A stretch of DNA of 64,000 nt from Marsupella aquatica. Lineage: Eukaryota; Plantae; Marchantiophyta. This document shows, one piece after another, positions 313-60,500 of this stretch. A program made the translations under genes and the position numbers. The stretch spans positions 24,799,899-24,863,898 of the forward strand of contig OZ316891.1 of assembly GCA_973895155.1 (NCBI GenBank), written 5' to 3'. Positions within the stretch are counted from its first letter, which is position 1, and every line of letters begins with the position of its first letter. Below the pieces are notes generated by a model that saw nothing but the letters and a program-made list of their open reading frames with translations, searched no databases and was not told the origin of the DNA.

Positions 313-318
313 AAAAGA

Positions 319-15017: not shown

Positions 15018-18000
15018 TGTGACACGGGTAACGTGTCACTTGACCGAACCCAGGTCGTAGATTAGGACTTATACGGTCATTAGGACTGTAGCCATAGCAT
15101 AGAATAGCACGTATAGCCATCAAGTTGCCATTATGATTAGATTAGGAGTAGGTTAAGATAACTGCATAATTACGAGTTCAGGAAAGGGATTATTACGCAT
15201 GACCGAGGTACGGTGGCGGCAGCGGAGTAAAAATCAGTTAGAAGAATCACGCTTGGACCGAGGTGCCGACTTCAGCTCGTTATCAATGACCAAACGGCCT
15301 GACCTTCTCACGCTCGGGCTCGTCCTGGCACCCCCATAAGAGAGGAGCCGATGGCACTGTGGGCCATTCGCTCATATTTACCTTTTTGGAATTTGCGGAC
15401 GCTGCCATCCACTCGCCTTCTTGATTGAATCCAGTCGACCTTTACGAGGAGATTATCAAGGGAGAAGAGCGGAATGTGGCGAGATTTAGTCAGGACGAGC
15501 GAGGCCTCCGCGAAAGAGGACCAGCCAGGTGGGAACGTGAACGCAACGAACCGGACTACGAGGTTAGTATGACCCTCACAGCCTTGGGATTTTGGACCTT
15601 GTTTGGTGAGGTAGGTGCTAAGTTCTCCGAGACTTACTGGTACTCTTGCCCCGAGAAAGCCGCTTACAAACGAAGGTACGCGAAGCTGGTAACCAAGGTA
15701 GCACTGGTTAATTGCGAAAGGACAGCCATCACCAGGGATTCTAGCTACAACGAGCTGCGAGACTACATCACCGAACTATATCTCAGCAAGGAAGGGCTTA
15801 GATCAGTAGCAGAGGCGATTCTTGAGGTTCCAGCTAAGTTCTTTAAGCTGAAGGGCAACCAGCGGCTTACTCAAGCGGAGTTCGACAAGATTCCGGGGTA
15901 CCTAGACCAGCAGATCGCAGCCGAACAGCGCCAAGAAGACATCAGCAGACAACGGGAAGCGGCGCATAATCTCACGTTTCTCGGGGAAAGCTCCAACGCC
16001 TTCAACTGGGATATGGCTACCCCAGTGCCTCAACCGATGACCACTGGACTACCGCCAAACCAGTCCCAAGTCCGTCCAGTAATCAACACGGAGTGTTCTT
16101 CGGGTTCCGAGCGAACTAGTCTGCAACTCGAACAGCATCCTCGTAAGCGGCCAAGGACTACGACGGCCCCCGAGCCAACAACACGGGCCGACGCCGCACC
16201 TGCACCTGCCCCGGCAAACCCCCCGACCAACCAGACCCGACGGCCCCCGGATAACCCGAAGTCCAACTTATTACAGATAATCCGCGTCCCCGAGGTAGTC
16301 TGGATTGCGATCAAGAAACTCGAACATGCGGACTATCTCAAGGAGCATCAGTTGGAGCGGTTTGCCCACTTGCTATGGAGGCCGTGCGCCGCCGGGCCGA
16401 AGGAGATTTGTGAGTTCATCTCCAATTTCAACACTGATGCGTCGACCACCAAGGTTTCAGGGCAGGTCTTATCACTCACAGAGCATCGGTTAACGCAAAT
16501 TTTCTGCCTACCAACCGGGCCGGTGCCGGTGGAAATCCGAATTTGGGATAAGGAGTATACGCCGCGGCACTTCAAACCCGAGGGTAAGACGGACAACGGA
16601 TACAAGCAGGGGGCGTGCACCAACTTAACCTGTATGGAGCGGCTTAACTTCATACGGACTACCCTACACATGATTGAGCCACGATCCGAGATTTCCCTCT
16701 GCATGATCGTGCAGGTGGAACAGTACAAACGACGAAATTGGGCCCAATTCTTCTACCGAAGATTCTCGGGGGAGCTGAAGCGGGCTCAAGGTGGTATGGC
16801 TATTGGAGGGAAGACTTACTTGGGAAGTCATATCGCCATTATCCTCGCCTGGTACAAGGCACGGCGGCAGGCCAGAGGAAAGAATATGGCCACCTCAGCC
16901 CCGGGTAATGTCACCCCCGGCCCAAAGGAGGCAACCCCGACTACGCGGACTACCGTCCCTCGGGCAAACCCCAAGCCGGAAGCCCCGACTAATACTCCGC
17001 AACCGCCCCCTGTGGAAATTCCACTGCCTCCTTCCATTGAGCCTCCGCTACCTGCAGTACAACCACCCCCAATCCCTCCACCACCTGAAGAAACCTTCCC
17101 CTCCCCAGCGCTGACTACGGAGGAGCTCATTGCCCCTGCCGAGGAACCACCGGTACCCGAGAGGATGGAGGACTACCAAGTAGCCCCGGGGACCATGGCC
17201 TATGACCTGGTCCACAAGTTTAGCCAGACTATGTCTGGGGAGCTGGCGACATACATCGGACAACAAGTCTCGACGTACTTTCAGCCAGCCTTCTTCATGT
17301 TAGAGCACCAACCACGGATCGTCAGCCGCTTGGAAGAAGAACTCATGGCGAAGGGGAATGAGATCGGGCGTCTCCAGATGCTGGTAGAGCACCTCGAGGA
17401 GGAGGCAACGACCCGCCGCGAGGATTTAGTCCGCACTGTCGAACAGAGGGACGGACTAACCCAGGAGTTAAGCGGAGCGCAGGCCGAACTCAAGAAGCTG
17501 GACGACACCGTGCTTCAATTACGCTTAGAATCTTCGGCTCGGGTTACCAGCCTGACCAACCTCAACAAACAATTCCTACAGGCAGCACAGCAGGTGGCTG
17601 GTCTCTCCGCCGAACAAGATAAATTGCTAGCACAGGACCAGGTCCATCGCGACGCCATCGACCAGCTCAACTTGGAGGTGGCGCGGCTCCAGACTGAAGC
17701 CGATGAAGCTGCAAACGAGGCGGAGGAAGCAGTACGGGACAACAAGGCTTTGCAGGACCGCGTCACCCTGCTCGTCCTCCAGCGGGGAAAACCTGGGGCC
17801 ACCTCTGATCAAGGCGGCTCGAGGTCTCGCCCCGACAAGGGGACCAGCCCTGGTCCAACCACTGCACACACGTAAGGGGTGGTTAGCGAAGGGTAGAAGC
17901 AGGCGCCGCGCGAGGCGGTTAAGTCAGCGGCATCTTTTGGTTAGGCGTAACGACAGAATGACTGTCATTAGGCACCGATTAGCGGCAGTAGGAAGAATTA

Positions 18001-18131
18001 GGGCCGGTCAGTTAGGATCAGCCAACGTAGGATGGAGTCCATCAACGGACTAGAGTTTGTCAGTAGGCTTGGCCGCTGCCATTCCGGTTGGCACACTCGT
18101 AGTCGACGGTCAACCGGTCAGTGCAGCGCGA
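15018..18131 (+). mobile_element. Family-B putative LTR (5' part), inserted in family-A gag; right end lost by deletion
   Basis: Starts TGTGACACGGG precisely at the gag breakpoint, contains an 816-aa ORF, and fuses without a CA terminus to a family-A LTR fragment. Confidence 0.6.
15425..17875 (+). CDS. LTR-borne accessory protein (plant-transposon/Athila-ORF-like domain, Pro-rich linker, coiled coil)
   Basis: 816-aa open frame. The core LERFAHLLW..EFISNF..TKVSG..LT..IFCLPTG..NGY..CT..LNFIR..NW aligns with the family-A ORF. Confidence 0.7.
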   Translation: MNPVDLYEEIIKGEERNVARFSQDERGLRERGPARWERERNEPDYEVSMTLTALGFWTLFGEVGAKFSETYWYSCPEKAAYKRRYAKLVTKVALVNCERTAITRDSSYNELRDYITELYLSKEGLRSVAEAILEVPAKFFKLKGNQRLTQAEFDKIPGYLDQQIAAEQRQEDISRQREAAHNLTFLGESSNAFNWDMATPVPQPMTTGLPPNQSQVRPVINTECSSGSERTSLQLEQHPRKRPRTTTAPEPTTRADAAPAPAPANPPTNQTRRPPDNPKSNLLQIIRVPEVVWIAIKKLEHADYLKEHQLERFAHLLWRPCAAGPKEICEFISNFNTDASTTKVSGQVLSLTEHRLTQIFCLPTGPVPVEIRIWDKEYTPRHFKPEGKTDNGYKQGACTNLTCMERLNFIRTTLHMIEPRSEISLCMIVQVEQYKRRNWAQFFYRRFSGELKRAQGGMAIGGKTYLGSHIAIILAWYKARRQARGKNMATSAPGNVTPGPKEATPTTRTTVPRANPKPEAPTNTPQPPPVEIPLPPSIEPPLPAVQPPPIPPPPEETFPSPALTTEELIAPAEEPPVPERMEDYQVAPGTMAYDLVHKFSQTMSGELATYIGQQVSTYFQPAFFMLEHQPRIVSRLEEELMAKGNEIGRLQMLVEHLEEEATTRREDLVRTVEQRDGLTQELSGAQAELKKLDDTVLQLRLESSARVTSLTNLNKQFLQAAQQVAGLSAEQDKLLAQDQVHRDAIDQLNLEVARLQTEADEAANEAEEAVRDNKALQDRVTLLVLQRGKPGATSDQGGSRSRPDKGTSPGPTTAHT

Positions 18132-18871
18132 CCTTCCTCTTCATTTCGGCTGCCGTGGAGGTTTCTCCTAGCACCGTTGCCTGGGTCCACCTTTCCGTGC
18201 TACCCTTCAATTCCCAGTGTATGTCGTTGCAGTTCTTGATGGCCTCTCGAATGCCGTTGATTCTGTCTTCGCAAAACAGAAGATCATCGAGCTGATTGGA
18301 AGTAGGAGTCCACAAGAACTCGGCCTTGATGAGTTCGCCTCCTAAGAAAGCCGTTTTGTGCAGCTCCCACAATCGAGTGAGCTCCTGTCGTTCTCGAGCT
18401 GCCCTTTCTGATTCTTTGTCCTCATAAGTGTTGATGTACTCAGTTGCCCGTTCGAACAAGCATCCCCAAAAATGTGTCGCTTGATTGACGTTGCTCATAC
18501 CCTCCTTAGGTCGATCGTCGGTATCTACTCTCTCCCCGAGTGCTTGCCTAAGCAACTGATAGTAGTTGGCCTCCCGTAGTCGTCTGCCTAGTTCGTGCTC
18601 GCAAATGAGCCACCATCTCCTGCAAGCGCTCCTTACCCCTCTCCTCTTCCAGTCCTTCCTCCTGTTGATCCTTCCTAGACACCGACGCTTAGCGCGCCCT
18701 AATCCTAATCGAGTTTTCACCCCCAGCGTCCTTACCTCCGGCCTCGGCCTGGGTTCCATAGTCGCCCCTAATTGTTTATATTTTCCTTGTTTTGTCCCTA
18801 TACTAAGGTGTTTCCAGGGTGCATTCCTGCTTTACCTTAACTGGCCGAGTGATTCCTGGCTAGGCATCACA
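18132..18871 (-). mobile_element. 5' end of a minus-strand family-A LTR, inserted into the 5' LTR of the plus-strand copy
   Basis: The minus strand begins TGTGATGCCTAGCCAGGAATC at 18871 and encodes the N-terminus of the LTR ORF. Confidence 0.9.
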
Positions 18872-19669
18872 AGGAGGCGGCCCTGACACTTAGCTTAGTG
18901 GGATTGCGGTTCCACTGGTAAGAGCAACACTTGTACTCCTGCCTCGCTGTACATAGGTAGATTCAGTTAGGTAGATTAGGCTTACGCTGCAAGGAATTAG
19001 GCGGATCCACTACCAGGATAAATACCTGGGCTGCGGGGAGCTTAGGGCCTCTTCTTTAGCAAGTTTTTAGTTTGCACCAGCCGGGCTGGGATCAAGTAGT
19101 AAGAGAAGCTCTCGGTTAGTCATATAGTGACCTTGTGTATATTCATGTTTCCTCATGCCTAAGAGCTGAATAGAGTTGGCCTCACGGCTTAGTTCACAGA
19201 GCTTGTGTATGAGATGTACTGTTTGTATGGCAAGTGCATGGTATGACTCAATCAGAAGGAGTCATTTTACTATTTGTGTGTCGCATTAACTTGTGTGAAG
19301 AGTGCCCACATCAACTAATAGATGAAGGAAAGTAAGCAAGGGAGTGAGAGTTGGATGTGTCGAGCTGAGAGAGGTCTTAGCGGCTTAACCAAGCCTATTG
19401 GGGATCATTCCAGCGGCGGAATCCAAATATACCTAACCAGAAGGAGAGGAAGACAAGGGAAGGCCTAGATTAGGCCGGCTACATATCTCATGACCCGATG
19501 AAGGGTCTGTCCAGTATATGTGTGTAAAATGTTAATAGTAGTAGTACAAGGAAGTTAGCAGCGTCCCATGCCGCTAAGCCGCAAAAATGGCCTCCCCAAG
19601 CGCAAAACCTGTGGGAATCGGCTTGTGCTAGGGGTTTCTTGGGTTTAGGGAGCCATGGGACGCACCACA
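18872..19669 (+). mobile_element. 3' portion of the 5' LTR of the plus-strand family-A element
   Basis: Nearly identical to 30108-30920; ends GGACGCACCACA immediately before the PBS. Confidence 0.92.
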
Positions 19670-19673
19670 TTTT

Positions 19674-19690
19674 TGGCGCTAGATGGAGGG
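19674..19690 (+). other. Primer-binding site, tRNA-Asn type
   Basis: CA|TTTTTGGCGCTAGATGGAGGG matches the complement of the plant tRNA-Asn 3' end (CCCTCCTTCTAGCGCCA) with one mismatch. Confidence 0.8.
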
Positions 19691-22224
19691 AGCATTTCTT
19701 AAGCCGTGAGATATGAAGTTAGGAAAGAAGCGTAGGTAATGACTGAACCTACGCCAAGGGAGGAAAGAGTGATTCAACGAGAGAGAGCTCGTCTGCAGCA
19801 GCTCGCCGGGTGGCATGATACACAGTGACTGAGAGGGGCAGAAAGAGCTGGTAGCTCCAAAGCTGGAAGTGGCGTCAAAGAAGAGATACCAGAAGAAGAG
19901 TCGGTAGGAAGACACGAGTACCCAACCAACATGGGGGAACCAGAGGCACGGCCAGACGAGAGGCCAGGGACCAGACTGAGCCAACGGTCGCGCATACATT
20001 ACAAGGCATTTCATGGGAGAGGAGATGAGGATCCGGACGAATGGTTGGATGATTTCGAAGGAACCGCTGCAGCAAATGGAGAATCGGTCATCAAGATGCA
20101 GATTCTTCTCAGCCTGTTCAAGGGTGAGGCTAGGCCTTGGTACAGAGCATTGGATGTGGAAGATCAAGCCATCTAGGATATCTTCAAAAAACTATTTGTT
20201 AAGGAGTTTCGACCCATTGGAACCTCAGAACTAGCAGTGCTGAAGTTGGGGTGACTTAGGTTCAAGGAGAACAAATCCTTCAGGAAGTTCTTGCAACGCT
20301 TCCAGAAACTGGTAAGACGTACAAAGACCAATGCATCTAAAGGTATGCAACTTCAATGATTGGTGAATGCTTTGCCACAGAAGATGAGTTTTGCAATAAG
20401 GAAGGAGAACCCAGAGACTTTAGCCGAGGCAATTAAAGACATTCAGTTATACATTAATGCAGATATCACAAGCCGGAAGAAACAGCTTAAGTCTGAGAGT
20501 TCCTCATCGGAGGAAGGATCACCCCATAAGAAAAAGGATAAGAAAAAGAAACACTCTAAGAAGTCAAGAAGTGATAACTCAAGCTCGGATAGTGGAGGTA
20601 GCAAGAGTGAGTCATCTTCTAGTTCTGAAGAAGAAAAAACTAGGAAAAGGAAGGGCAGAAGAAGAGGGAAGACGAAAGTCAATCTGGAGGCTAAACCACC
20701 AGATAACATCGTAGCCCTTACCGAGCAGCTTAAAGCTATAATAGCAGAGGTGAAGCTGAAGAAGAAGGTAGTGCAGGAGGATAGCTCTGTATGGTGTGCC
20801 TTATGTTATAAAACCGGACACCATAAAGATGCATGTCCTAAGCTCAACACTAGTCATGTTCGGCATGTGGCTGAAGTCAGATCGAGTCAGGGAGAAGTAG
20901 AGTACTTTCTAGGAGATGCCGCTGATAGTGTTTTCGGCATCAGTGAGACTGGAGCACAAGATCTATCCAACCGACCTACATCTCTCTGGTCAGGATTAAA
21001 GAACAATCCAGGAGAGATGTATCCTCGGATTATTCAGAATCCGTCAGTACCTCCTAGGCCGAATGTGCAAAGATTTGCGGCATGCTATAATTGTGGTCAA
21101 CCTGGCCATTTTGCTAGAGAATGCCCGAATGCACGTAAACAAGGTGACGGACAGCCAGCTCAGCTATGTATGGGATGCCGACAGGAGGGTCACATGCTAG
21201 GACAATGTCCTACTTGGTTGGCAGGATTGGCCGCAAATCATAAACTTTTGCCGGTCAAGGTCTTGCCGCCAGGTACTACCCCAGGAGGAGTTCAAATCAA
21301 CCACATCGAGCTCGGATGGCAAGTGGATGCCGAGGCAGAGTTTGGACCATCTGATGATGAGACCGAGGCCCTATCAACATTTTCAGAAGAGGATGTGGAT
21401 CATGATTGCTACCGGATCTCTACTCGATCAACTAGAAGGAAGGAAAGGTGGGATGGGTTGGCCAAAAATAAGGGGAAGGTTCAGGAAGAAAAGATCGACT
21501 CTTTGTCAACATCAACGGAAGGAGAAGGAAGGGAACCGTCAACACAGGTAAGCCATGAACCCACCAGTGAGCCCAATCCTTCATAGGACAGTGACTTCAA
21601 TCGAGATCACCCAAAGTTGTTCTACCCATCTATCACGGCTAGTGTTAAGGAACAACTGCGAGAGTTAGAAAACCTGGAGAATACCAAAGCCATAGCCAAG
21701 GATATAAAACGAGCAAAAGCATTGTTTGCTTTGGAAGATCCAACGGCTGTGGGGACTAGCGTGAAAAAACAGGCCGAATCCAAGATGGAGACACCACTAG
21801 AGAAGCCGATAGTTCCCTATGACCTGGCTAAAGATGTACTAGAATCTAGAGTCTCGGCAACAGTATGTCAACTATTGAAAAATAGCCCGTACTTCCAGAA
21901 GCAGTTAAGAAAGGCAATCCTCGGCAAGCCAAGATTACCCAAGGTAGCGACCAGATCCGACGTACTAATGATAGAAGAAGATCAAGGAGCCCCAGCATTA
22001 CCATTAATAATTCAAGGAGAATTATTACTACGGGTACCCATCGATGGAGGATCAGGGGTATGTATTATGATTGATTCAACAGCAAAAGGGTGGGGTCGAA
22101 CACCAGAGATGACTGGAAGAGTGTTGAACATGGCCAATGGATATCAAGTCATTCCCATAGGAGTGTTAACCGGCATCAAGACAGAGATAGGAGGTATCTT
22201 CTTTAGCATTAACTATGTAGTAAT

Positions 22225-22509
22225 CAATAGTTTCACTAATTTTGGAGTATTATTAACGATTTGGAAATTTCATAACAACTTTTTGGAAATTTAAATCAAC
22301 TAAATTGTAGATAAATATGAGACTTATCAATATCATATTTGAAATTTTTTGATCAAGATATATGAAGCTTAACAAGCTACTCCTAATAAATCTATGCATA
22401 ACATACAATGTACTCTAGAACTCAAGTTATAGGGAAAAGAATAATTGTTGTTGGAAATTTCATGATCAAAAATTGGACAAAAGAATGTCCAGAGTTCGTG
22501 AAATCACTA
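22225..22509. mobile_element. hAT-type MITE (285 bp) inserted in the protease region
   Basis: Absent from the paralogous copy near 13590. Imperfect 22-bp TIRs (CAATAGTTTCACTAATTTTGGA / TAGTGATTTCACGAACTCTGGA) and an 8-bp TSD GTAGTAAT/ATAGTAAT. Confidence 0.8.
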
Positions 22510-22925
22510 ATAGTAATGAAGCCGGTAAATCCTACGTCATTCCGGCTATTGATTGGTAGGCCATGGCTATACCTAGCCAAGGTAATAGAGGATTGGGGTA
22601 AGAAGGAGTTCACTTTTGGGACCCCCTCTATCACGGTATCCTGGGATACCAAGGATGACCGCAGAAGAAGCATCAGGGAGGTAGACGGGTACGACAGTGG
22701 ACTGGAATCAGCCGATGAGGTACGATGGTTAGAATGCCTCGCTGACCAAACCGAAGAAAGTGTCTTTGGACCAGAGGTATCCCCCAGCGGACTATGGCAA
22801 GAACCTATGGAGAGTGACTTGGATGATTGTGAAGATGAAACCGAGGACTGCTTTGCCATAGAGTCCACCTTTTTAGCTTCAATCCCGGAGGAAGCACAAG
22901 AAGTAAGCCAGTTGGATGAAATGGC

Positions 22926-22940
22926 TAAGTGGGGAGCTAT
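22926..22940 (+). other. Internal (central) copy of the polypurine tract
   Basis: TAAGTGGGGAGCTAT is 15/15 identical to 26173-26187. Confidence 0.6.
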
Positions 22941-25900
22941 ACCCGAGATGGTGGATTTTTCTATGGCGTTGTGGCAGAGCCGGCAGGATCCACAACGCCA
23001 TCTATCATCGGCAAGGAGTTAAAAACCAAGGGATCGGCATACAAGCCGATTACGAGGGCAGAACAAATCGAGGCCCTATTAGAGGCCGGGAGAGCACAGC
23101 GGCCTGACCCTCAGTAGGAAGAGGCGGATGAGATGCATAGACACAATCCAGAGCCAAGGCAGGAAGGGAAGCCGACCACCAATTCAAAACCGGATAGACC
23201 GGCAAGGGGACAATCTGTGGACACCAAGGAAGAGACCGACTCGGCTAGTACAGCCGATATTCCAGTTTATGGAGGTATGAGACTGGAAAGGCCGGAAGCC
23301 GAGCTGGACCCGAATTTGAAGAAGCAGATTAATATGATCCAAGCACGACAATACCGGAAGCTCGACTTAGGAGAAGGAAGAGAATTGAACTTAGGGAGAG
23401 ACCTAGCACTTGAGCTTGAAAAAGAGATCAGTGACTTACTGATTGAATTCCAAGATGTGTTTGCATGGAGTCATCAAGATCTGAAAGGAGTAGACCCAAA
23501 ACTGGGAGAACACCGAATTGATCTCATGTTAGGAGCCAAATCATTTCGACAACCGATTTGAAGGATGAACCCTAAGTATTCCCTGATGGTCAAAACAGAA
23601 ATCGACAAACTAGTGGAAGTCGGATTCATCACTCCAGTCCTGCATTCAGACTGGGTGTCTCCAATTGTGATAGTTCCCAAGAAAGCTGGACCCGATGGTA
23701 AACCCAAGATCCGGGTTTGTCAAGATTACAGGAAGCTGAATGAAGCAACGTTAAAAGACCATTTTCCTTTACCCTTTACTGATATGGTACTAGACATGGT
23801 AGCCAGTCATGAACTATATTCATTCATGGATGGATACTCTGGTTATAACCAAATCAGGATTAGGCAGGAGGACCAAATCAAGATGGCCTTCATCACGGAA
23901 TGGGGGATCTATGTCTTCAATCGTATGCCGTTTGGACTCTGTAACGCACCAGCTATGTTTCAACAATTGATGGTGAACATTTTCCATGATTACTTAAGAA
24001 AGTTCATGGAAATCTTCATTGATGACTTTGCAGTATTCGGGAAGGCATCGAAACATGCTAAATATCTAAGGAAAACCTTCATGAGATGCAGAGAGGTAGG
24101 TCTCAAGTTACACCCCGATAAATGTTTCTTTGGAGTAATAGAAGGTGTGCTACTAGGTCACAAGGTATCAAAGAAGGGCATTGAGATTGACAAAGGTAAG
24201 CTAGCAGTATGGCTTGACATCATGCAACCTAAGAACATAAAGGATGTAAGATCCTTCTTAGGCTGCATTGGGTATTATTGCCGGTTTATTAAAGATTTTG
24301 CCAAGCTAGCTTTACCATTAACCAACATGCTCAAGGCAGGCGCAGACTTTGAACCCACACCAGAAAGAGTAACAGCTGTGGTGAAATTAAAGCAAAAGTT
24401 AGTGGAAGCCCCAGTCATGATAGCACCGGACTGGAACAAGGAATTTCATGTCTTTGTAGATGTCTCAGGTTTCTGTATCGGCTCAGTACTAAGTAAATTG
24501 GATGAGAAAGGGAGGGACCATCCCATATACTTTGCAAGCTGTCAACTTGCCGATGCCGAACGGAACTACTCCACCACAGAAAGAGAAGCATTAGGAGTCA
24601 TTTATTCATGTAAAAAGTTTAGGCATTATTTGCTAGGGTACAAGGTAATCTTTCATACCGATCATGAAAGTTTGAAATACCTAGTAAATAAGCCGGACCT
24701 TACAGGCAGGGTAGCAAGATGGATTTTGCTATTATAGGAGTTTGACTACAAGCTAAGGATCAAGCCGGGGAAGCTATACGCCAATGCCAACTTCTTTTCA
24801 AGGATCACAGGTGAACCAGCCACGGATTGCATCGATGATCAAATTCCCGACGAGGAGCTATTTGTTGTGGAAATAGCTGATACATGGTACCCAGAGATTT
24901 TGCACTTTCTCAGTACGTCCAGATTACAGCCAGGGCTAACCCGAGAACAAGCCGAAGTCTTTCTGCGGAAGGTCAGACAGTATCAGTACATTAAGGGTGT
25001 GCTACACAGGTATGGAATCAGCGGCACTATGCAAAGGTGTTTGGAAAAGAAAGAGATAAAACGAGTCTTACGGGCTATGCATGGAGAAGAGGCCGGAGGA
25101 CATATTGCTCCAGTAACCACGTCTAAAAAGATGTTAAATGCCGGTTACTGGTGGCCCACCTTGCACAAGGATGTCTATCAGTTCATCAAACAATGTGATC
25201 CTTGTCAGCGAGCAGGAGGACCAAGGTCGTCTACAAGACATCCACTGCACCCTATTCTACCTCTAGCACCATTTGAGAAATGGGGTATTGATTATATCGG
25301 ACCGCTAAAACCATTAACCCATCCTCGGAGAAACAAGTACATAATCCTGGCCACGGATTATGCAACTAAGTGGGTGGAGGCCAGGCCGACAACGAAGGAT
25401 GATGCAATTACTGCAGCTCGATTTCTGTATGAGCATATCTTCACCAGGTATGGAGCACCCCTAGAATTAGTTAGTGATAGAGGAACCCATTTTCTGAATG
25501 ATATAATTAGTCATTTAAATGAGCAGTATTTAGTTAGACATAGGCCTACTACTCCTTACCACCCAAAGGCAAATGGATTGATAGAACGAGCCAATGGGAT
25601 TATAGGAAAGATATTGAACAAGACAGTAGCTTAGAACAAACTTGATTGGGATGATAAATTGTTTGCTGCTGTTTTTGCTTACAATTTAGCCTATAAATCC
25701 ACTACCGGTCATACACCTTTTTTCTTAACCTTTGGACAAGAAGCTCTGGTACCCATGCAACTTGAGATACCAACATTTCAAGTTTCCATTGAGGAAAGAG
25801 TCTCAGAGGAGGAAAGCCTGAAAGACCGAGAATATAGATTAGAAGCTTTAGAGGAGGCAAGAATGATTTCAGCCGAGAGAATAGAATATAGACTGAATAT

Positions 25901-26172
25901 CATGAAGCAGCAGTATGATAAAAAGTTGAAAGTAGTTAGTATTCACACAGGGGATCTTGTATTACTTTATGACAGTAGGTATAGTAAGTTTCCAGGGAAG
26001 CTTTACACGAGTCGCTGGCTAGGACCTTTCAGGGTATCAAAAAAGTTCCCCAATGGCTCTGTGCAATTGGCCAACATTACCGGAGAGGTGTACCCAGTTT
26101 GTATTCACTACGACCGCCTCAAGAAATACTATATGGACGAAGATGAAGTTGTTCATGAGGACGCTTCACAAT

Positions 26173-26186
26173 TAAGTGGGGAGCTA
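26173..26186 (+). other. 3' polypurine tract of the family-A element
   Basis: TAAGTGGGGAGCTA lies directly before the LTR start TGTGATG (26187), within the last integrase codons. Confidence 0.85.
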
Positions 26187-29100
26187 TGTGATGCCTAGCC
26201 AGGAATCACTTGGCTAGTTTAAGTGGAAAAGGGAAGGGTACCCTAGAAACACCTTAGTATAGTTACAGAAATAAGGAAAATATAAACAATTAAGGGTGAC
26301 TATGGAACCCGAGCCGAGGCCGGAAGTAAGGACGCCAGGGGAGAGAACACGATTAGGGTTAGGGCATGATAAGTGCCGGCGGCTAGGGGTCACCAACGGG
26401 ATAGAAACGCCAAGGAGGAGAGGGGTAAGGGCAGCTCGCGAGGAGTTGTGGCTCATTTGCAGGCACAAACTGGGCAGACGACTACGGGCGGCCAACTACT
26501 GTCAGCTGCTTAAGCAAGCACTCAAGGGGGGAGCAGATACCGACTATCAACTTGATAAGGGTATGAGCAACATCAATCAAGCAGCACATTTTTGGGGATG
26601 CCTGTTCGAACGGGCAACTGAGTACATTGGGACTTACGAGGACGAAGAATCGGAGAGAGCAGCTCGAGAACGGCAGGAGCTAGCTTAGTTGTGGGAGCCG
26701 CAGAAAGCTACCTTCTTAGGAGGAGAACTCATCAAGGCCGAATTCTTGTGGACTCCTACTACCAATCAACTCGACGACCTTCTGTTTTGCGAAGACAGAG
26801 TTGTCGGCATCCGCGAGGCCATCAAACGCTGCAACGACATACACTGGGAGTTGAAGGGTAGCACGGAGGGGTGGACAAAGGCAACCGTGCTCGGAGAGAC
26901 ATCCACGGCAGCCGAGATGAAGAGGAAGGGAATTAACAACGACGAGGCCACCCCGACAAAAAGAACAAGGTCGGTGGCACCAAAGAGGCCAACCGAACAG
27001 CAGAGCAGGAGGCAGAGAGAAGCCGAGGAGGAGGAGGTCGACCCCATCAACACCATTCCAACGAGAGATGACACCTGGAAAGGCTAGGCGGCGATCCTCC
27101 CCAAGGAGGTCCAATTACACTTTGCAAGAGAGGAGGATGCATGCTTTACGGCTATGCAGACTCGGAAATATCAGGGCTTCATGGCTGGATCCGGCTTGGA
27201 AGCCTTTGTAAGGTTACCGTGGCTGAAGCTGGAGGTGCCGAATTCAGACTTACTTGAATTCGTGGGATCATGGGAGTCCGAGACCAATTCCACAAGGGTG
27301 TATGGGAAGGAATTCTATCTCACTCCCTAGGTGATTGCCGAAGTGTTTGGCTTGCCGATGGGCAATAAGACCAAGGTAGATACCAAGAAGACCTTGCCAG
27401 ACACGGAGTTCAGGTCGTTCCCAGGGCCTTCAACAAAGAATGGCTTCTTCCGTAACACTTGCACCAACCCGCATATAGGAGAGATGATCGATTTCTTGCG
27501 GGTGACCATGCATTGCAACTGGCCAAGAGCAGAGATTGGCAAGGCACAGGTCTATCTGGCAGAGAGGCCAGACCCAAACCGGGACTACAACGGCTACCTC
27601 CTCACTCAACTAAAGAAGATCTTGAAGGAGGAACAGCTGGTGATCGGCAAGGGAAGCGTGTCCCGGCTTGGCTATCACATGCCGCTATTGTGCCGGTATG
27701 CCCAAAGTAAGACCTTTGCCCCGGTACTTCCCCTACAGGCAAGGGCATCAGAGGAGGTTCCAGAACAGAGGCCGGCAACGGAGAAACCCAACCCGCCCAA
27801 CAGTCCTACAATCGAGCAGGTGTTTAGGCCAAGGACGGAGGACTTGCCGATGCAGCAACCAGGCATGCAGAATCTGCTGAAACTGCTGGAGAAAGAAAAG
27901 AGATCGGCATCGGCAACGACAACGGCATCGGCAACAACAACGGCAACGGCAACAATGCAGGACACTACTCCAGAGGTAGGCCTAAACCGGCTTACAAGGG
28001 AAAACCCCTTTACTGGAGTCAAGGAGAGAAGGAGGCCGGAACACGAGCCGGGAGTCCAGATGTATGTAGGAGCCTCTAGTCCCAAAGCCAAGGAGAAGCA
28101 GGCCGTAACTCCCGGCCACGACAAGGAGAACAGGAGATCAACACGGAAGCCGGAGGAGGAACCAAGACCGGCAGGAGGTGAAGCCGTGTTCACGCCAAAA
28201 CCAGGAGAGGAGCGGGAGAAGCCGGTAGTCCAAGCCGAGGAGGAGGCGGTGGAGGACTACAACAATGATAACTCCGGCTATGGGTCGGATCATCATGTTC
28301 CAGGTTTAAGGACATGTGGCCCCGGTTCATCCCCACGCTCCCAAGAGTAGTCCGAGGGGACCCGAGCCAGCAGAGCAGCCCCGAGTCTCCCCCGCCAGAT
28401 GTCACTCCCCCGAGCTTTGACAGCATAAAACAGACAGCGCAGGAATTTCAGGAGCGAATCAGGGAGGAAGAGGAGGCAGCCCTGGCTAGAGAGAAGGATT
28501 TACCAGGAGGAGAATGGCCAGAGAACATTAGGCGGCTTGCAGAAAAACGAGGCAGCCCGCCAGCCACAATAGAAGAGATCCGCAAGGCGGCTTGGGAACA
28601 AAGGCCGCGATGGATGATGCCGATGACTTCTACTTCCTCCACCTATGCTAAAGATAGAGCCATGGAGTACGGGGAGATGTGTGGGGAATTGGCGCTCAGC
28701 ATCTTTGGGGAGGAGTTGGAGCAGGGACCCTTTTTCCAGAGGGAGATGTTGGAGAAGCGCCAATTAGAAGAAGCAGTGGCCTTGGAAAGAAGCAAGAAGG
28801 ACGAGGTCATCCGTCGGCTTAGGGAAAGGGAAGCCAAAATCAAGGACCTGAGGGCGGCCAAGAAAGCCCAAGATGAGCTGCGGATTAAGCGGCATGAGCT
28901 AAATATCATGCAGGGCCAGTTGGATACCACACAATCTGATAATCGGATGATCGAGAATCTACTGATGCAGACCCAAGGAGAGTTGGCCGATGCAATCAAA
29001 GAGAGGGAGAAGTGGAAGCGAGAGCTGAGGAATGCAGAGGAGGCCCACATAACAGCCAACAACCGGGCCATGGCGGAGACCCAAAGAAAGGAATGGGCGT

Positions 29101-30920
29101 TGAAGGGGGAGCTCAAGAAAATTTGCGGAGCCCTTGAGCAGAAGGAGGCCGAGTTAGGGAAATCCTATCAAGGGATTATTGCGCTGCAGCAGGAGCTTGC
29201 GTCCCTGACGGCCAGCTTCAAGGCCGACCTAAGGGAGAAGGACGATATGCTCGATCAGACTTACGCCAAGATGAACTAGATGGAGTCTGTCATCATTGCA
29301 GAGCTCGACAAGGAGCTAAGAGCAACCCGGGAGGAGAGGGCTACCTTGAAGAAAGAACTGGAGGAAGCCCACAAGGAACGGGAGGAAGCCCAGAAAGAAC
29401 TGGAGGAGGTGCGCAAGGACCTGGACGAGGTGCAGGAGGAGTTGGAGGAAAGCACGCGGAGGCTGGAGAACTTACAACGACGAGCCGACAACCAAACGGA
29501 GCGACTGAAAAAACAAACCGTAGTATTTAAGTGCTTGTCTTCATCAGGCCCAACTCCAATTGGGGCAACCAAGTTACCAGGAGTGGTACTGGCCGAAGAA
29601 CAAGACGCGCCACCTGCACCAGTGCCGGAAGTAAGTGGGAAGGGGAAGGGACCAGCTGCCGAACCAGAAAAGAAGAAGAAGCGGAAACCTTCAGGGTCAA
29701 GGAGTAATACGACTCCACAGGCCGTGGTGACCAAGGAGGTAGACCCAGCACCAACCCCAGACAGGGTCACGGCAAAGGATCCAACTACCCTAGAAGGAGG
29801 GGAGGCCGAAGCCATGGCTGAGGCCGAAGCCGTTGCTGATGCCGAGGCCGGTGCCGAGGCCAAAGCCGAAGGTGGACCCAGTCAGGCCGATGGAGAGTTG
29901 ACTAAGTCCGGGGTAGGTAATCTGTCAGAGAACGAACCTACGACAGTGGCTGAGGAGGAAGCGTTGGGGGCGTCCACTGAGGAACAGACACCGCTGCCAT
30001 GACGGTGGTGGAGGGCCGCTCCTTTCAAGGAGGGCGGACGTGGAGGGAGGAGGCATGAGTGGGCAAGGCGGGCTCGGATCTCTAAGTTTAGGATTAGGAT
30101 CAGGACGAGGAGGCGGCCCTGACACTTAGCTTAGTGGGATTGCGGTTCCACTGGTAAGAGCAACACTTGTACTCCTGCCTTGCTGTACATAGGTAGATTC
30201 AGTTAGGTAGATTCAGTTAGGTAGATTAGGCTTACGCTGCAAGGAATTAGGCGGATCCACTACCAGGATAAATACCTGGGCTACGGGGAGCTCAGGGCCT
30301 CTTCTTTAGCAAGTTTTTAGTTTGCACCAGCCGGGCTGGGATCAAGTAGTAAGAGAAGCTCTCGGTTAGTCATACAGTGACCTTGTGTATATTCATGTTT
30401 CCTCATGCCTAAGAGCTGAATAGAGTTGGCCTCACGGCTTAGTTCGTAGAGCTTGTGTATGAGATGTACTATTTGTATGGCAAGTGCATGGTATGACTCA
30501 GTCAGAAGGAGTCATTTTACTATTTGTGTGTTGCATTAACTTGTGTGAAGAGTGCCCACATCAACTAATAGATGAAGGAAAGTAAGCAAGGGAGTGAGAG
30601 TTGGATGTGTCGAGCTGAGAGAGGTCTTAGCGGCTTAACCAAGCCTATTGGGGATCATTCTGGCGGCGGAATCCAAATATACCTAACCAGAAGGAGAGGA
30701 AGACAAGGGAAGGCCTAGATTAGGCCGGCTACATATCTCATGACCCGATGAAGGATCTGTCCAGTATATGTGTGTAAAATGTTAATAGTAGTAGTACAAG
30801 GAAGTTAGCAGCGTCCCATGCCGCTAAGCCGCAAAAACGGCCTCCCCAAGCGCGAAACCTGCGGGAATCGGCTTGTGCTGGGGGGTTTCTTGGGTTTAGG
30901 GAGCCATGGGACGCACCACA
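26187..30920 (+). mobile_element. 3' LTR of the family-A element (4734 bp) containing a long ORF
   Basis: Runs TGTGATGC...GCACCACA, is preceded by the PPT, and its 3' end matches the LTR end adjoining the PBS at 19669. Confidence 0.92.
26296..30002 (+). pseudogene. LTR-encoded ~1200-aa accessory protein, disrupted copy
   Basis: Collinear ORFs 26296-26688, 26689-27087, 27331-28350, 28314-29279 and 29280-30002 match the 1116-aa ORF; disrupted by TAG stops and one frameshift. Confidence 0.85.
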
Positions 30921-31241
30921 AGAATCAAGGAAGGGGAATTCAATCTAAAGCAGTACGACCCAAGAGAAATTTGCAGATCCGACCCTCAAACACGATAGCA
31001 ATCTGATAAAGCACGTGCAACAAGGCAAGGGATTCAATCACCCCTACATGCATTCTTAATCGCAATCAAATTACAAATTACTTCATATTTGTAACACTTC
31101 CCGACGGAAATTGCAAGGATACGTCCTACCATCCACAAACAAAATTTTATCCAATGAATTCCATGGAGAAATTGCATTTCCAGGCACTGTCAATAGATGG
31201 ACTTAATTATCTATCTTGGTCATTGCACGTTGAAGCACACC

Positions 31242-41300: not shown

Positions 41301-41636
41301 AGTCAAGTAGATTACAGTAGGTAGATTAGGTTTACGCTGCAAGGAATCAGGTGGATCCGCGACCAGGATAAGTACCTGGGCGGTGGGGAGTTCAGGGTCT
41401 CTTCTTTAGCAAGTTTTTAGTTGCACCAGCAAGGCTGGGATCAAGTAGTAAGAGAAGCTCTTGGTTAGTTATACAGTGACCCTTGTGTATATTCATGTTT
41501 CCTCATACCTAAGAACTGAATAGAGTTGGCCTCACGGCTTAGTTCGCAGAGCTTGTGTATGAGATGTACTGTTTGTATGGCAAGTGCATGCTATAACTCA
41601 GTCAGAATGAGTCATTTTGCTATTTGTGTGTCGCAT
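38325..41636 (+). mobile_element. Family-A LTR copy with an internal deletion and 3' truncation
   Basis: Starts TGTGATGCCTAGCC and carries ORF fragments 38398-41086. LTR homology stops at ...GTCGCAT (41636), where copia RT resumes. Confidence 0.9.
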
Positions 41637-43317: not shown

Positions 43318-43421
43318 TGTTATGACATGTAGATTACACTATAAGTGACCATTACATTAGTAAGACCCTAATATAATACTTAGAGGTTAAGGTAGTTACT
43401 TAACCGCCTCATCATGTAACA
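43318..43421 (+). mobile_element. Short 3' LTR (~104 bp) of the Bianca-type copia
   Basis: TGTTATG...ATGTAACA with inverted TGTTA/TAACA ends, directly after the PPT. The right end is inferred. Confidence 0.6.
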
Positions 43422-55600: not shown

Positions 55601-55737
55601 TGTACGTTGTTGGCGCAACACTGAAAGTTGCTACTTTTACCGCTGATCCGAAGCAGCCGTCGTGCGCCAATTCGGAAGCAGCCATTGGCTAGGAATGTTG
55701 ATGCATTTTGTGAAGGCAAAGTTTGAATGTTGCCAAA

Positions 55738-55858
55738 CCCAAAAGTCGATTCGGCGTAGCTAAGCGTTACGGGCTCACCCAAAAGTCGATTCGGCGTAGC
55801 GAAGCGTTGCGGGCTCACCCAAAAGTCAATTCGGCGTAGCGGGCGTGAAGGGCTCACT
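55738..55858 (+). repeat. Short tandem repeat, 40-bp unit x ~3
   Basis: CCCAAAAGTCGATTCGGCGTAGC...GGGCTCA recurs at 55738, 55778 and 55818. Confidence 0.8.
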
Positions 55859-56269
55859 CTTAGCTCATCTCGGCGCTTCAAGGCAACTCGGGACGAGGGG
55901 CGTGAGGTCAGAGCAGGAGCGGGCGGGCCAGCAAGCCAGCTTGCTGGTATGTGAGGAGTAGTTGCAAGCTGTTGAAATTGGAGCGACCAATTTGGTGCAT
56001 AACTACAAGTGAGAGGTCACCCATCCCAAAGCTATTCCTTCCCCACACGCTTAACTATGTGGTTCTTAAGTGCTTGTGTGTACACACATTCCTTTCTACT
56101 TTGATGTTAAGAAATGAACACTTAGGAATTTTATACACAGTCATTCTAGTTTGTTTAGAGTGTCATTTTGGGCCAAATTATAAGCTCTTGTGAGGTTTTT
56201 GATGCTTCTGAGTTCATCCGGATGCATGGATTGAACCAATTTTGCATGGATTCTTAGCTACGACATTGA

Positions 56270-57518
56270 TGTGGTGCATCCCATGGCTCCCTAAACCAAA
56301 GAAACCCCCCTTGCACAAGCCGATTCCCGCACGTTTCGCTCTCGGCAAGGCTGATTCCGCGGCTTAGCGGCATGGGACGCTGCTAACCTTCTATTAACAT
56401 TTTACACACATATACTGGACAGATCCTTCATGAATTGGGTCATGAGATACGTAGCCGGCCTTTTCTATGCCTTCCCTTGTCCTCCTCTCCTGGTCTTCCT
56501 TTAGGTATGTTTGGATTCTGCCGCCGGAATGATCCCCAAGTGGCTTGGGTGAGCCGCTAAGACCTCTTTCAGCTTGACACATCCAACTCTTACTACCTTG
56601 CTTACTCCCTTCTCTTGGTTGACGTGGGCAATCCTCAAACAAGTTAATGCGACACACAAATAGCAAAATGACTCCTTCTGACTAAGTTATACCATGCACT
56701 AGCCATACAAACAATACTTCTCATACACAAGATCTGCGATGGGTTTCTCTGCTGTCGGCCTTTGTTCTTGAACCTCCTCTGGTGCCCTTGCCTGCAGGGG
56801 AAGTACCGGGGCAAAGATCTGACTTTGGGCATACCGGCACAACAGCGGCATGTGATAGCCAAGCCGGGACACGCTTCCCATGCCGATCACCTGTTGTTCC
56901 TCCTTCAAGATCTTCTTTAGTTGGGTGAGGAGGTACCCGTTGTAGTCCCGGCTTGGGTCTGGCCTCTCCGCCAAGTAGACCTGTGCCTTGCCGATCTCTG
57001 GCCTCGGCAAGTTGCAATGCATAGTTACCCGCAAGAAATTTGTCATCTCTCCGATGTGCGGGTTGGTGCAGGTGTTCTGGAAGAAGCCATTCTTTGTTGA
57101 TGGCCCTGGGAACGACCAAAACTTCTTGTCTGGCAAGGTCTTCCTGGTATCTACTTTGGTCTTATTGCCCATTGGCAAGCCAAACGCTTCGGCAATCACC
57201 CGGGGAGTGAGATAGAAATCCTTCCCATACACCCTTGTGGAATTGGTCTCGGGCTCTCATGATCCCACAAATTCTAATAAGTCTGAATCCGGCACCTACG
57301 GCTTCAGCCATGGTAATTTCATGAAGGCTTCCAAGCCGGATCCGGCCATGAAGCCTTGGTATTTCCGAGTCTGCATAGTCGTAAAGCATGCATCCTCTTC
57401 TCGTGCAAAGTGTAGTTGCACCTCCTCGGGGAGGGTCGCCGCCCAGCCTTTCCAGATGTCATCTCTTGTTGGAACGGCATTGATGGGATCAACCTCCTCT
57501 TCTTTGACTTCTCCCTTC
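56270..57518 (-). mobile_element. Family-A LTR remnant (3' end plus part of the ORF), with internal deletion
   Basis: TGTGGTGCATCCCATGG terminus at 56270, a deletion junction near 56740, and ORF 56699-57232 matching the conserved core. Confidence 0.9.
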
Positions 57519-60500
57519 TGTGAGTATTGGGTAATACCAAAAACCTGAAATTACTAAAAAATTTAAACTTTTTACAGTGTTTAAGCATGTTGTTGCTATT
57601 AAAGTGCCAAGTGTAAACTACGGGTATACTTTATAATGGGATTATGCATTTATGCGTATAAGCGTTACGGGTTTATGGGTTTACGGGTTTATGGGTTTAC
57701 GGGTTTATGATGTTATGAGTTTATGCCAATACGGGATTACGGTTTACGCCTTACGCATTTAAGGAAAGTTCACGTTATGGCGCTACGGCTAACTTCGCAA
57801 CGGGACTTAGCAACGGAACGGGGACTTCATGCCTTGATAGGAACCAAGCACAGAGTTTAGGGGCTCACTCTTGTCTCTTCACCACCCCTATTCACTTGCC
57901 CTTTCCCTTCGAAAGTAACCTTTGCAGCACGCAAATTATTGTTGCAGCTATGGCAACCCTGGGTGCTAAGGAACAGTATCAAATTGAAGCTCTAGCAGTC
58001 TCAAAAGTAGTGGCAGCTCGTATACCACGAGCGCCTGATAGTCTTTCTAATTTACAAGACTCTTTACAGCACTTAGGATTGGAACGCTTACTCAAGATTC
58101 CCTGGAATGTCAAGCTTGACTCCTACTTGCAAGATTTTGTAAAGGGGACTATCATCCCGATTGAATTCAGGCAAACGATTCAAGCTCGCCCCAGCCTGTG
58201 GATTGTTGAGCAAATTGCTTACACCTTTGGATGCCTGTCAGAAGGAGAGGCGTTATATTCCAAGAAGCAGGACTTATCTACTCCATACTTCTCAGGAACT
58301 CAAAATCTCAAAAATGGCTGGAACTTGTCCCAGTGTACTTATCCTGAATTGAGAGTGCTCATGGAATTTCTGGTACCCATTCTTCATCCGAAAAAGCCAA
58401 CCCTCTGCCTTGTGGCCTTGGCTAACACTATTGTAGCTGCTCACAGTGGAGCTATAAAAGTAAATTGGGCCCTACTTCTGTTTAATGTAATGAAGGATCA
58501 AGTAAGGAGCTTGGAATCGGGGAGGACCACTTGCTTGCAGAATTATCTCTCTCAGCTCTATTATGCCCATGACTGTTTACATCTTGAGGAAGAGACAGAG
58601 AGGGGGTTACTCCTAATTGACCTGGGTATTGAAGAAGAAATTCCCATGGAAGACATGTACATGTCACCCCATTGAATTTGAATGATCAAAACGTTGAGGA
58701 GAATGTTGATGTTCCTATGGAGGATGCTTCATTAGAAGTTCCTACACATTCTCCTATGCATAGCAGGGAAGTTGTTTGCCAATCAATAAGTAATGAGAAT
58801 ACCCCTAGCCGGACTATGGATGCTGATCCACTAGAAGCTGAAGAAGTAAGGAGCATTCATCAACAAGATGATGTTGCTACACCAACTGATGCTACTCCTC
58901 ATGAGACCACCAGGCCCACTCCTTCAAAAGCAGAGTTGAATCAGCAGCTTATTGATAAGTTGACATCTCTCCTCAGTTGCAGTGATGATGGACTATATGA
59001 TGTTGTTAGTAATTTGAGAATGGAGGCTGTTAGTTTGAGATCACCATTTCATGATCAGCTAAGTCTTGTCAGAATGACCTCTCCCCCAACAGAACCAGCA
59101 CCAATGGAGTTTATGATCTGTACTCCTGTCATTGTACAGCCCCCTCCCCTAGAAACAAGTGAACCCATTCCACTGACAGAAAGTATCAGTTGTGTAGCTA
59201 TTATGGATGATTTGCTAGAAATACTTCAGTGTGAACCTCGACAGATAGCATCCGTGGTCAGCAACTTGATCCAACAATGTCCAATTGCTAGTCCCACTCC
59301 TAGCCCCGGTTCGCAACATTACTGACAGCCCTGATTCCAACTATGAACCCACTGAAGGACCCACCTACAATCGGTCACAATATGAGCACCCTTACGTAAA
59401 AGAGGATATGCCTGAAGACTCTGATCCACCCTCAGATGGTGAAACTTATAGATCTTATGATAATTCTCTTGAGTCATCCCCAAGGCAGGGATTTGAAGAT
59501 GTTGATACTGCCTTAAGATCCAATCCAAACTTAGCAGCAGTTGTCACCTCATCTACTCAGACACCTCGGAATGCCACCATCGAGAGTAGATACCCGAGAC
59601 ATCCAGAGTCCCAACTGCACAGGTATGTGGAGACCAGTAAGATAATGCAGGCCAACAGACCACCGGTTGGAGAGTTTTGGAGATACTACTATCTCAAAAA
59701 GACAGAGGCCAGTTATATCTTCGACCTCAGGTGTTTTGGAACTTCCAGAGTAGAGATGGCACAATTCGATGAGTTCTGGACTGACTCTCTCTACTTCCGA
59801 CCTATTCTTGCTGTGATGCTGCTTCAAGGAGATGTGGAGGTGGAGGATCCAGATTTAGTTCTGGCATATTTTGGAAATTTGGCAGCTTATGCCCTAGATT
59901 TTGTGATTTCTTTTCTCATGCAGTGTAAGAAATCTACTTCTCCCCAGAACGCTTACCTTCCTCAAGAACCCAAGGTTACCCTTGTTTCAACCAGTTCATT
60001 AGCCGAGAAACAGAGAATCTGGAACAATGTCACCTCTCAAACTCTAGCCAACTTCAACCGGTATTTCAAAGATGTCAAATGGAGGCTTCACCCTTTCTAT
60101 TCCAGGATGCTGAACTCTGATGAATTCCTATACCATTATCCCCAAGTATATGCTGCTACTTGCAATAATTATGACGTGATTGGGATATATAGAGAAGCTC
60201 TTCGAATAGACATATGTTATCTAAGGAAGAGAATGCCCCTGATGTATCCTGAAAGACAATTGAGATGTCTACCCTACTCTCGAGGATCCCCACGCCAGGC
60301 TGAGCTAATGGAAGTTACCCAGAATCAAACTGTCACGGCAGTGGAGCTACTCGAACCAAAAGACATCCGACAACAAGCTTGAGTAGTAGTCTAAGTGTTT
60401 TTAGTTAGTTTTAAGAGTAGTGCATCTTTCCCTATTTTTCAAAATGTGTTATAGATCTTTAAAAGCTATGAAACTTCTTTAGTATATAGTCTATACATAG

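Follow-up and report, generated by a model that had tools for sequence, protein, structure and literature searches.

The window analysed here, a 64,000-nt stretch of contig OZ316891.1 (positions 24,799,899 to 24,863,898, forward strand; coordinates below count from its first letter), is plant DNA with many nested transposons and contains a Ty3/gypsy retrotransposon, family A, whose long terminal repeats (LTRs) of 4.65–4.73 kb hold a protein-coding gene inside the LTR itself. This gene is under purifying selection. The core domain of its product is homologous to cores encoded by two further repeat families, B and C, and is predicted to share the fold of VANC21, an accessory protein of the Arabidopsis transposon VANDAL21. 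The preferred reading, to which a probability of roughly 0.55 is given, is that the core protein is a DNA-binding regulator of its own family: the gene of family A and its homologues in B and C, likely LTR-borne as well, would encode proteins of VANC21-type fold that bind motifs in their own LTRs and keep these LTRs transcriptionally open.

The LTR gene of family A

Self-comparison of the window recovered the family A repeat as six pieces, and the core motifs of its open reading frame (ORF) occur in four copies, at 27193 and 39329 on the plus strand and at 34886 and 57337 on the minus strand. An earlier note on this DNA had quoted such motifs for families A, B and C, all of which were found in place. 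The family A features are as follows.

31242..35889, minus strand: solo LTR, 4,648 nt, TGTGATG...CACCACA, with the 5-bp target duplication ACACC; the target is a copia gag region
32463..35516, minus strand: intact LTR gene of 1,017 codons; it starts at Met105 of an open frame of 1,121 codons
34350..35003, minus strand: core domain of the solo LTR copy
18872..19669, plus strand: 3'-end remnant of the 5' LTR of element A1, differing from the 3' LTR at 16 of 798 nt
19670..26177, plus strand: internal region of A1, with primer-binding site (19674), gag with zinc knuckles, protease-like region, reverse transcriptase (RT), ribonuclease H (RNase H) and integrase, interrupted by stops
26178..26186, plus strand: end of the A1 polypurine tract, GGGGAGCTA, preceding TGTGATG; the junction is identical in the related locus L001 (below)
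26187..30920, plus strand: 3' LTR of A1, 4,734 nt, directly behind the tract; its gene is disrupted by stops and one frameshift
18132..18871, minus strand: leading 740 nt of the LTR belonging to a second A element, which has inserted in the A1 5' LTR
38325..41636, plus strand: truncated LTR within a copia pol region, its gene broken
56270..57518, minus strand: internally deleted LTR piece retaining part of the core

Because ACACC flanks both sides of the solo copy, the full 4,648 nt represent one LTR. The termini are TG...CA, a primer site follows the 5' copy, a polypurine tract precedes the 3' copy, and the Ty3/gypsy order gag-protease-RT-RNase H-integrase is seen in A1 as well as in L001. 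The gene therefore lies within the LTR in family A, as the earlier note had proposed for all three families. Its location downstream of the polypurine tract means that both LTRs receive the gene during reverse transcription and that no solo LTR loses it.

The 1,121-codon open frame compares with a longest stop-free run of 377 codons among 200 LTR shuffles. It encodes an N-terminal domain, the core, a low-complexity linker and a long helical, coiled-coil-like region. Codons 19–102 evolve neutrally (pN/pS, the ratio of nonsynonymous to synonymous differences per site, 0.78–1.16), whereas codons 103–225 are constrained (0.15–0.24), and the methionine at codon 105 aligns with the starts of the B protein and of three relatives. 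Owing to this switch and this alignment, the gene is taken to comprise 1,017 codons starting at LTR nt 374; the first methionine of the frame, at codon 19, was rejected as a start by the selection test. For the core of the solo copy against three other copies, the ratio of nonsynonymous to synonymous divergence (dN/dS) is 0.10, 0.09 and 0.11 at dS values of 0.32–0.50, and for the whole ORF it is 0.24 and 0.29. The linker value of the piece at 56270–57518 was excluded, as its internal deletion misaligns. In each of the two long copies, three of the four ORF indels are in frame. Purifying selection, which the earlier note had claimed for the architecture in general, is thus established for family A only.

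A TATA-like word at LTR nt 93–100 could serve the gene. The ORF presumably lies in U3.

The last 800 nt of the A LTR copies, the non-coding 3' end, differ by 0.05–0.09, while synonymous sites of the same copies differ by about 0.4; either strong constraint on this end or exchange between subfamilies would account for this low divergence. At least half of the A LTR words are present in 6 of the 16 sequencing runs listed, which come from several organisms. The A1 protease region carries an AT-rich insertion of about 290 nt (22223–22510) with a repeated GTAGTAAT/TAGTAAT-like flank, and the second A copy is without it. The copia element at 30921–42818 (gag, integrase, RT) has taken up at least two and probably three insertions of family A, and no LTRs could be identified for it.

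The primer sites presumably correspond to tRNA-Asn in family A and tRNA-Asp in L001; the window itself contains no tRNA gene. A single RNase H region is seen in the L001 pol and in the A1 pieces scanned, as regards the extra RNase H of Tat elements; the A1 protease-RT spacer was covered by reading alone. The 5-bp duplication of A and a 3' sense ORF in L001 are compatible with Athila. The Phygy lineage of REXdb is defined by a 4-bp NCGN target duplication according to the supplement of PMC6317226, and the 5-bp ACACC of the A solo LTR does not conform to it.

Families B, C and D

The units that carry the other homologous ORFs, and a B-like piece termed D, are listed below.

15018..18131, plus strand: family B unit, multi-copy; it opens with TGTGACA where the gag of the second A element is interrupted, and lacks its 3' end
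15569..17875, plus strand: family B ORF, 768 codons from a methionine aligned with the A start; core at about 16262–16870
57519..61341, plus strand: family C unit, multi-copy, 3,823 nt, TGTGA...TCACA
57950..60382, plus strand: family C ORF, here split over three frames; core 57950–58615, motif at 58076
1603..3701, plus strand: family D piece holding a B-like ORF's C-terminal half, then 899 nt of non-coding sequence with two TAGATTAGG sites

Both B (15018) and C (57519) open with TGTGA exactly where family A sequence breaks off, so that the TG termini at insertion breakpoints described earlier are confirmed. One contig of sequencing run X5 begins to match family B at 15018, preceded by 39 other letters, and the C terminus TCACA coincides with the point at which two contigs cease to match (61334). 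The C unit has TG...CA termini with a short inverted repeat; B shows an LTR-type 5' terminus only. Both are multi-copy in three of the four sequencing runs compared, the fourth giving patchy cover. The C unit has no target duplication (flanks CCTTC and GTATT), which recombination between two copies would explain. Inside the unit neither a primer site nor a polypurine tract was seen. From these features the B unit is quite probably an LTR, and the C unit is likely one too, with slightly less assurance, probably as a solo LTR; the claim of a gene within the LTR is hence secure for A, with its solo copy and ACACC, and only likely for B and C.

Two candidate features of C were discarded. A primer-site look-alike at about 57778 matches over 8 nt only, and all covering contigs of runs X1 and X5, together with most of X2, differ in a base. 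The reading of 60455–60470 as a deleted tract was set aside, as no such insertion is among the indels listed.

The distance from the TG terminus to the likely start codon is 373 nt in A, 431 nt in C and 551 nt in B; the interval of about 450 bp given previously therefore suits A and C and falls short for B. The B motif lies at 16352 on the plus strand, in the frame 15425–17872. In this copy the C ORF, previously treated as one, is split into three frames; its three pieces are matched in order, at 74, 50 and 75%, by the uninterrupted 808-aa protein P0001, a natural relative, and contigs of other copies carry indels at both frame breaks. The ORF piece of D is 20% identical to B over 322 aa (E 1e-13) and is devoid of the core domain; the unit terminates with CGTGACA against a Mutator-like ORF.

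Homology of the cores and their relatives

The proposal that the three cores are homologous, with no DNA similarity visible, is borne out. The A-B local alignment score of 179 (49 of 202 residues identical) and the A-C score of 63 were reached by none of 2,000 shuffles; the B-C score of 48 was reached by 10 of 2,000 and is marginal alone. A profile of 47 A/B-like matches scores C at 30.7 bits (best of 900 shuffles, 4.2), and one of 47 C-like matches scores A at 30.5 and B at 12.9 bits (best of 900 shuffles, 5.0). The two profiles align at 98.9% with an E value of 1.3e-17 over 179 columns, although bridging sequences are favoured here because the matches were collected with a profile containing A, B and C. 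At the DNA level, blastn of B or C against the A LTR yields at best a 13-nt match (E ≥ 0.5). On this sequence evidence the homology of the A, B and C cores is confirmed. A and B also share their N-terminal domain (0 of 1,000 shuffles), which C lacks.

In the full protein library, the core of about 200 residues has 118 relatives at E ≤ 0.001, 32 of them at E ≤ 1e-10; among 30 checked by name, four are from Calypogeia fissa, one from Riccia sorocarpa and one from Selaginella moellendorffii, which makes a liverwort-type host likely. One relative, P0086, looks spurious, as it belongs to other Pfam families. The tree, built from 78 of the 98 rows of alignment A2 (which omits 24 of the 118 relatives, mostly short ones), separates A/B-type from C-type cores. 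The node joining C with P0036, the protein of L001, has a support of only 0.34, so no order of events is claimed.

Known domain families are approached from a distance. None of the six window cores matches Transposase_32 (PF20167, Pfam cut-off 45 bits) at E ≤ 10, and this family appears below the cut-off in 4 of the 118 relatives (best 34 bits, E 3.5e-8). Pfam searches with the A, B and C ORFs and N-terminal domains returned coiled-coil noise and nothing meaningful, with no window protein at the cut-off. Word-index protein searches gave nothing for the B core, and P0091 and P0001 returned themselves only; of six pattern matches of the C core among viral contigs, none was confirmed. In the ESM Atlas, 24 of 30 matches of the C core are Transposase_32 and 3 of 30 are ATHILA. 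For the B core, with these two families excluded, 18 of 30 are unnamed plant clusters, 10 are DUF1985 and 2 are PMD, a weak link since PMD occurs on 20% of the members in these two matches. Language-model scores of 0.92, with 158–184 features shared with the Transposase_32/ATHILA/DUF1985/PMD group, provide an alignment-free lead. The earlier guess at a Transposase_32, Athila ORF or PMD-type protein is thus upheld as a remote relation, through the four sub-cut-off matches and the Atlas neighbours. The Atlas result agrees with published links: PMD-C and the DUF1985 domain of VANC are reported to be structurally homologous (bioRxiv 10.1101/2024.09.27.615353), and VANC has been linked to MAIN through a proposed capture of a host MAIN-like gene (PMC13547354).

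Predicted fold of the core

AlphaFold models of the B core (98 sequences) and the C core (47 C-type sequences only) reach a predicted local distance difference test (pLDDT) score of 93.6 and 94.6. With the B model, Foldseek places the VANC21-DNA structure 9lnj first (probability 0.90, template modelling score 0.51, E 0.14), the next entry having a probability of 0.03. Against 48,161 chains, VIA also ranks VANC21 first for B, with Z 8.3–8.4 and an rmsd, the root-mean-square deviation, of 4.4 over 190 aligned residues (next Z 2.3–2.4), and for C, with Z 7.1 and an rmsd of 4.6 over 207 residues (next Z 4.3 over 59 residues). Because C-type rows were also present in the B alignment, the two models are only partly independent. 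A PDB sequence search with the 98-sequence profile gave five rows, all outside the core (best E 0.14), and the viral structure library yielded no match at E ≤ 0.001. Taken together, the core very probably adopts the VANC21 fold and belongs, as a remote member, to the Transposase_32/ATHILA/DUF1985/PMD group. This fold match, like the motif arrays described below, goes beyond the earlier note.

Motif arrays in non-coding parts

Short words are arrayed in the non-coding parts of these elements.

57636..57725, plus strand: C upstream array of 11.4 units with 8-bp period and core TTTA[CT]G, preceding the ORF
60600..60660, plus strand: C downstream array, 8-bp period, 7.6 units, with the same strand and core word
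30190..30230, plus strand: A LTR array in the non-coding 3' part, GTAGATT with a 14–15-bp period, ending in TAGATTAGG; also at 31935–31975 and 41277–41330

The arrays are clear in C and L001 and modest in A, B and D, and two control elements also show them. They vary between copies: contigs of other C copies skip parts of the 8-bp arrays, and the 14–15-bp arrays of A differ from copy to copy. Across the window the word TAGATTAGG is found 10 times, where 0.42 would be expected, and always in non-coding parts of A, B and D; six of the ten sites are copies of two A sites. The related 8-mer GATTAGGA has six occurrences over A, B and D, and none of 1,000 simulations gave a word shared so often. L001 has a word of its own, AGCGCTA, in 11 copies on one strand.

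Further word clusters were observed in L001 and B. In L001, AGCGCTAC-type words cluster with 8-bp spacing, nearly all on one strand, at 637–700, 5069–5130, 6748–6800 and 7992–8030, that is, in the pol spacer, the ORF linker, the LTR and the leader. Across family B (15552–18052), CGGACTA occurs six times on one strand, mostly in coding sequence, and none of 100 simulations reaches its score.

A relative with the gene outside the LTR

A metagenome scan with P0036 produced 29 pattern matches and a single locus, L001. It is a circularly collapsed Ty3/gypsy element whose pol is 53% identical to that of A1, and P0036 is 36–37% identical to the C core, far closer than A or B at 13–19%. Its order is pol, a tract-like motif without a following TG, the C-type ORF, a tract with TGTGATG as in A, a 991-nt LTR, the primer site and gag. 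The ORF is most likely a 3' internal one, outside the LTR. A lineage-wide gene-in-LTR architecture, as earlier concluded, is not supported by this best reading, in which the ORF lies between pol and the polypurine tract. The ORF domain is old and widespread, and its position relative to the LTR is not fixed.

From the upstream motif to the LTR end, L001 contains a stretch that resembles the C unit in size and layout. The unit, the distance from its start to the methionine and that from the stop to its end measure 3,794, 451 and 1,114 nt in L001 versus 3,823, 431 and 959 nt in C. If plus-strand priming shifted from one such tract-like motif to the other, the gene would thereby enter or leave the LTR. 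As judged from this one contig, such a shift is a tentative route for the entry of the gene, given a little under even odds.

Proposed function and alternative explanations

According to the preferred reading, the core would bind short motifs in the LTRs of its own family, and the bound protein would keep these LTRs transcriptionally open. The gene would be expressed, the motifs would be its targets, the C-terminal helical region would mediate oligomerisation, and the role, likely family-specific, would be that of an anti-silencing factor or an activator.

Several observations weigh against this reading. A shared fold by itself demonstrates no function, and the match stands at 9–11% identity with a Foldseek E value of 0.14 for B; with the C model, VANC21 is absent from the 13 Foldseek rows, for which at most 2,000 candidates were aligned. 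By the tool's own account, Z scores of 7–8 are common between unrelated models, although the present matches span the whole domain. The C core is balanced in charge (21 K+R versus 21 D+E), with no net positive charge, and for the host PMD proteins, which oppose Polycomb, direct DNA binding is stated as not yet demonstrated (bioRxiv 10.1101/2024.09.27.615353). As to the motifs, enriched words also occur in a Mutator-like stretch and in an ORF-less 1.4-kb LTR at 318–1720; the whole A solo LTR and D are not above the null (16 and 11 of 100 simulations, respectively, reach the score); and a single motif is common to A, B and D, whose proteins are no more than 20–25% identical, so that the site of a host factor would fit as well. 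Finally, L001 is a single circularly collapsed contig without flanks, so its LTR start is placed by the tract and primer site alone.

In a rival reading the gene is real and located in the LTR, but the protein would act in the particle or in integration, through nuclear import, chromatin tethering or a coiled-coil scaffold, with the motifs being sites of host transcription factors. The linker and helical region make up most of the protein, the Athila domain and VANC are both predicted to be pentamers via coiled coils (PMC13547354), TAGATTAGG is common to three divergent families, and arrays are also found in elements without a visible ORF of this type. The strongest constraint, however, falls on the core and not on the coil (dN/dS 0.10 versus 0.21), and among solved structures the core matches only one, a transposon protein on its target DNA. 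An envelope-like role is disfavoured because no segment has a clear transmembrane score, the best 19-residue hydropathy values being 0.95, 1.18 and 1.63 for A, B and C1. A particle or integration function is considered possible but unlikely. Somewhat less probable still is that only family A holds its gene within the LTR, B and C having an ordinary 3' internal extra ORF, as in Athila, with termini that are chance breakpoints. The most likely internal ORF of L001, whose protein is far closer to the C core than A or B, agrees with this, as do the missing target duplication of C, the missing 3' end of B and the 959 nt behind the C ORF, which approximate the size of the L001 LTR. Chance breakpoints are nevertheless hard to reconcile with B and C both starting right at an A break with TGTGA, the LTR start of A and L001, a word with a frequency of 0.0009 per position, or with C ending in TCACA just where contig matches cease. 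Between the C stop and the C end there is no purine run of at least 10 combined with a plausible LTR start, and the interval from terminus to ORF holds no primer site; moreover, B shares its N-terminal domain with A, and the B-like piece D ends in CGTGACA with no tract before that end.

It is highly improbable that the open frame arose as a side effect of base composition or represents a decaying passenger, such as a captured host or DNA-transposon fragment, with no role in the element. Breaks or truncations affect four of the five A LTR pieces, the C copy is split over three frames and much of the ORF is of low complexity, but the selection test on the core, at dS values of up to 0.50, refutes this for family A, and the length of its frame far exceeds that of the shuffles. 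In addition, there are 118 relatives, the modelled folds are confident, and an intact 745-codon frame exists in the same kind of element elsewhere. A bolder version of the preferred reading regards the LTRs as self-contained anti-silencing cassettes, in which a VANC-fold protein, encoded by each copy down to the solo LTRs, would bind the arrays of its own family and strip repressive marks, the gene having entered through priming at an upstream tract. Transposase_32, Athila ORF1, PMD and DUF1985 would then be one old DNA-binding fold, present in retrotransposons of early land plants before VANDAL elements. This extended scenario is speculative and, as a whole, doubtful.

Other features of the window

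An LTR of another Ty3/gypsy family (5' LTR, 318–1720, minus strand, about 1.4 kb) contains no long ORF and a GACGCTG/AGCGTC word array; the primer site of this family is identical to that of L001 over 25 nt. The Mutator-like stretch at 3702–13300 includes an ORF (6178–7653, no Pfam match) with a cysteine motif that we take to be of the SWIM type, and two F-box-like ORFs, at 7887–8624 (by eye) and 9392–9871 (weak Pfam match). The word GGCGACCCTCGCCGA forms arrays there at 7707–7782 and, as a 37-bp unit repeated 20 times, at 10423–11156, and is also dispersed; possibly, the stretch represents a VANDAL-like element that has a motif system of its own. Telomere-like ACCCTAA repeats are located at 8821–8843 and a palindromic TGACTGATATCAG repeat at 13247–13295. 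Exons of a cytochrome P450 gene occupy 47500–51500. On the minus strand, an ORF at 61794–62882 encodes an NLI-interacting-factor phosphatase domain (E 1.7e-16) in 363 stop-free codons, with raised contig depth.

Comparison with known systems

The function of extra ORFs in plant retrotransposons is described as an open question in reviews. In plant non-chromovirus Ty3/gypsy elements, the accounts consulted locate them internally, on the 5' or 3' side of gag-pol (PMC6317226, PMC4408406, PMC7264820, PMC11728184). A literature search found no plant retrotransposon with an LTR-internal gene or a VANC fold, most subscription journals and Repbase reports being outside its coverage. The A-type gene thus appears to be a plant retrotransposon accessory gene that is new in position and, through its predicted structure, informative in fold. 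ORF surveys restricted to the DNA between LTRs overlook such genes, and solo LTRs, usually seen as dead ends, would here be trans-acting coding units. With a predicted VANC21 fold and candidate motifs, the function of an extra ORF becomes directly testable by binding and chromatin assays. The finding also bears on the published view that extra ORFs arrived late, since moss Tat-like elements are reported without them. According to PMC13547354, VANC is restricted to dicots; given a conserved relative in retrotransposons of non-seed plants, it becomes worthwhile to test whether the fold arose in transposons, as against by capture of a host MAIN-like gene.

A conserved domain combined with a coiled coil in an accessory ORF is likewise found in Athila ORF1 (PF03078) and Transposase_32 (PF20167) proteins, in the PMD-coiled-coil ORFs of Ogre and in the Transposase_28 ORFs of Retand. 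L001 shares the Athila-like 3' sense position of the ORF, whereas the ORF of A lies inside the LTR. The rice elements Retrosat2, RIRE3 and RIRE8 resemble A in having LTRs of more than 3 kb and an extra ORF, but their ORF0, compared here by its description, is placed upstream of gag-pol and not as part of the LTR (PMC3485330). As for position, the nearest parallel is the sag gene of mouse mammary tumour virus (MMTV), according to PMC9412291 a whole gene in the U3 of a retroviral LTR and hence present twice per element, as in A; the protein and its function are unrelated, and the ORF of A, with 1,017 codons, belongs to a plant retrotransposon.

The host PMD proteins MAIN, MAIL1 and MAIL2 are assigned to the same structural group and act through short DNA motifs against Polycomb silencing (bioRxiv 10.1101/2024.09.27.615353). 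They differ in being host genes of flowering plants, and the Atlas link to them is weak here. In its predicted fold, the core is most like VANC21 of the Mutator-like VANDAL21 (DUF1985, PDB 9LNJ/9LNK). Both are transposon-encoded accessory proteins with a conserved core, variable regions and a coiled coil. The same-strand arrays in non-coding parts, clear in C and L001 and modest in A, B and D, resemble those of VANDAL21, where the 9-nt motif recognised by VANC21 forms arrays of a single orientation in such parts (PMC5735166). The present gene differs in its LTR-internal location in a Ty3/gypsy element of a likely liverwort-type host and in its 9–11% identity, and binding and demethylation are putative for it. 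Because it is encoded in a Ty3/gypsy element and not in a Mutator-like VANDAL, the core protein is not classed as a VANC, but as one that would work like a VANC.

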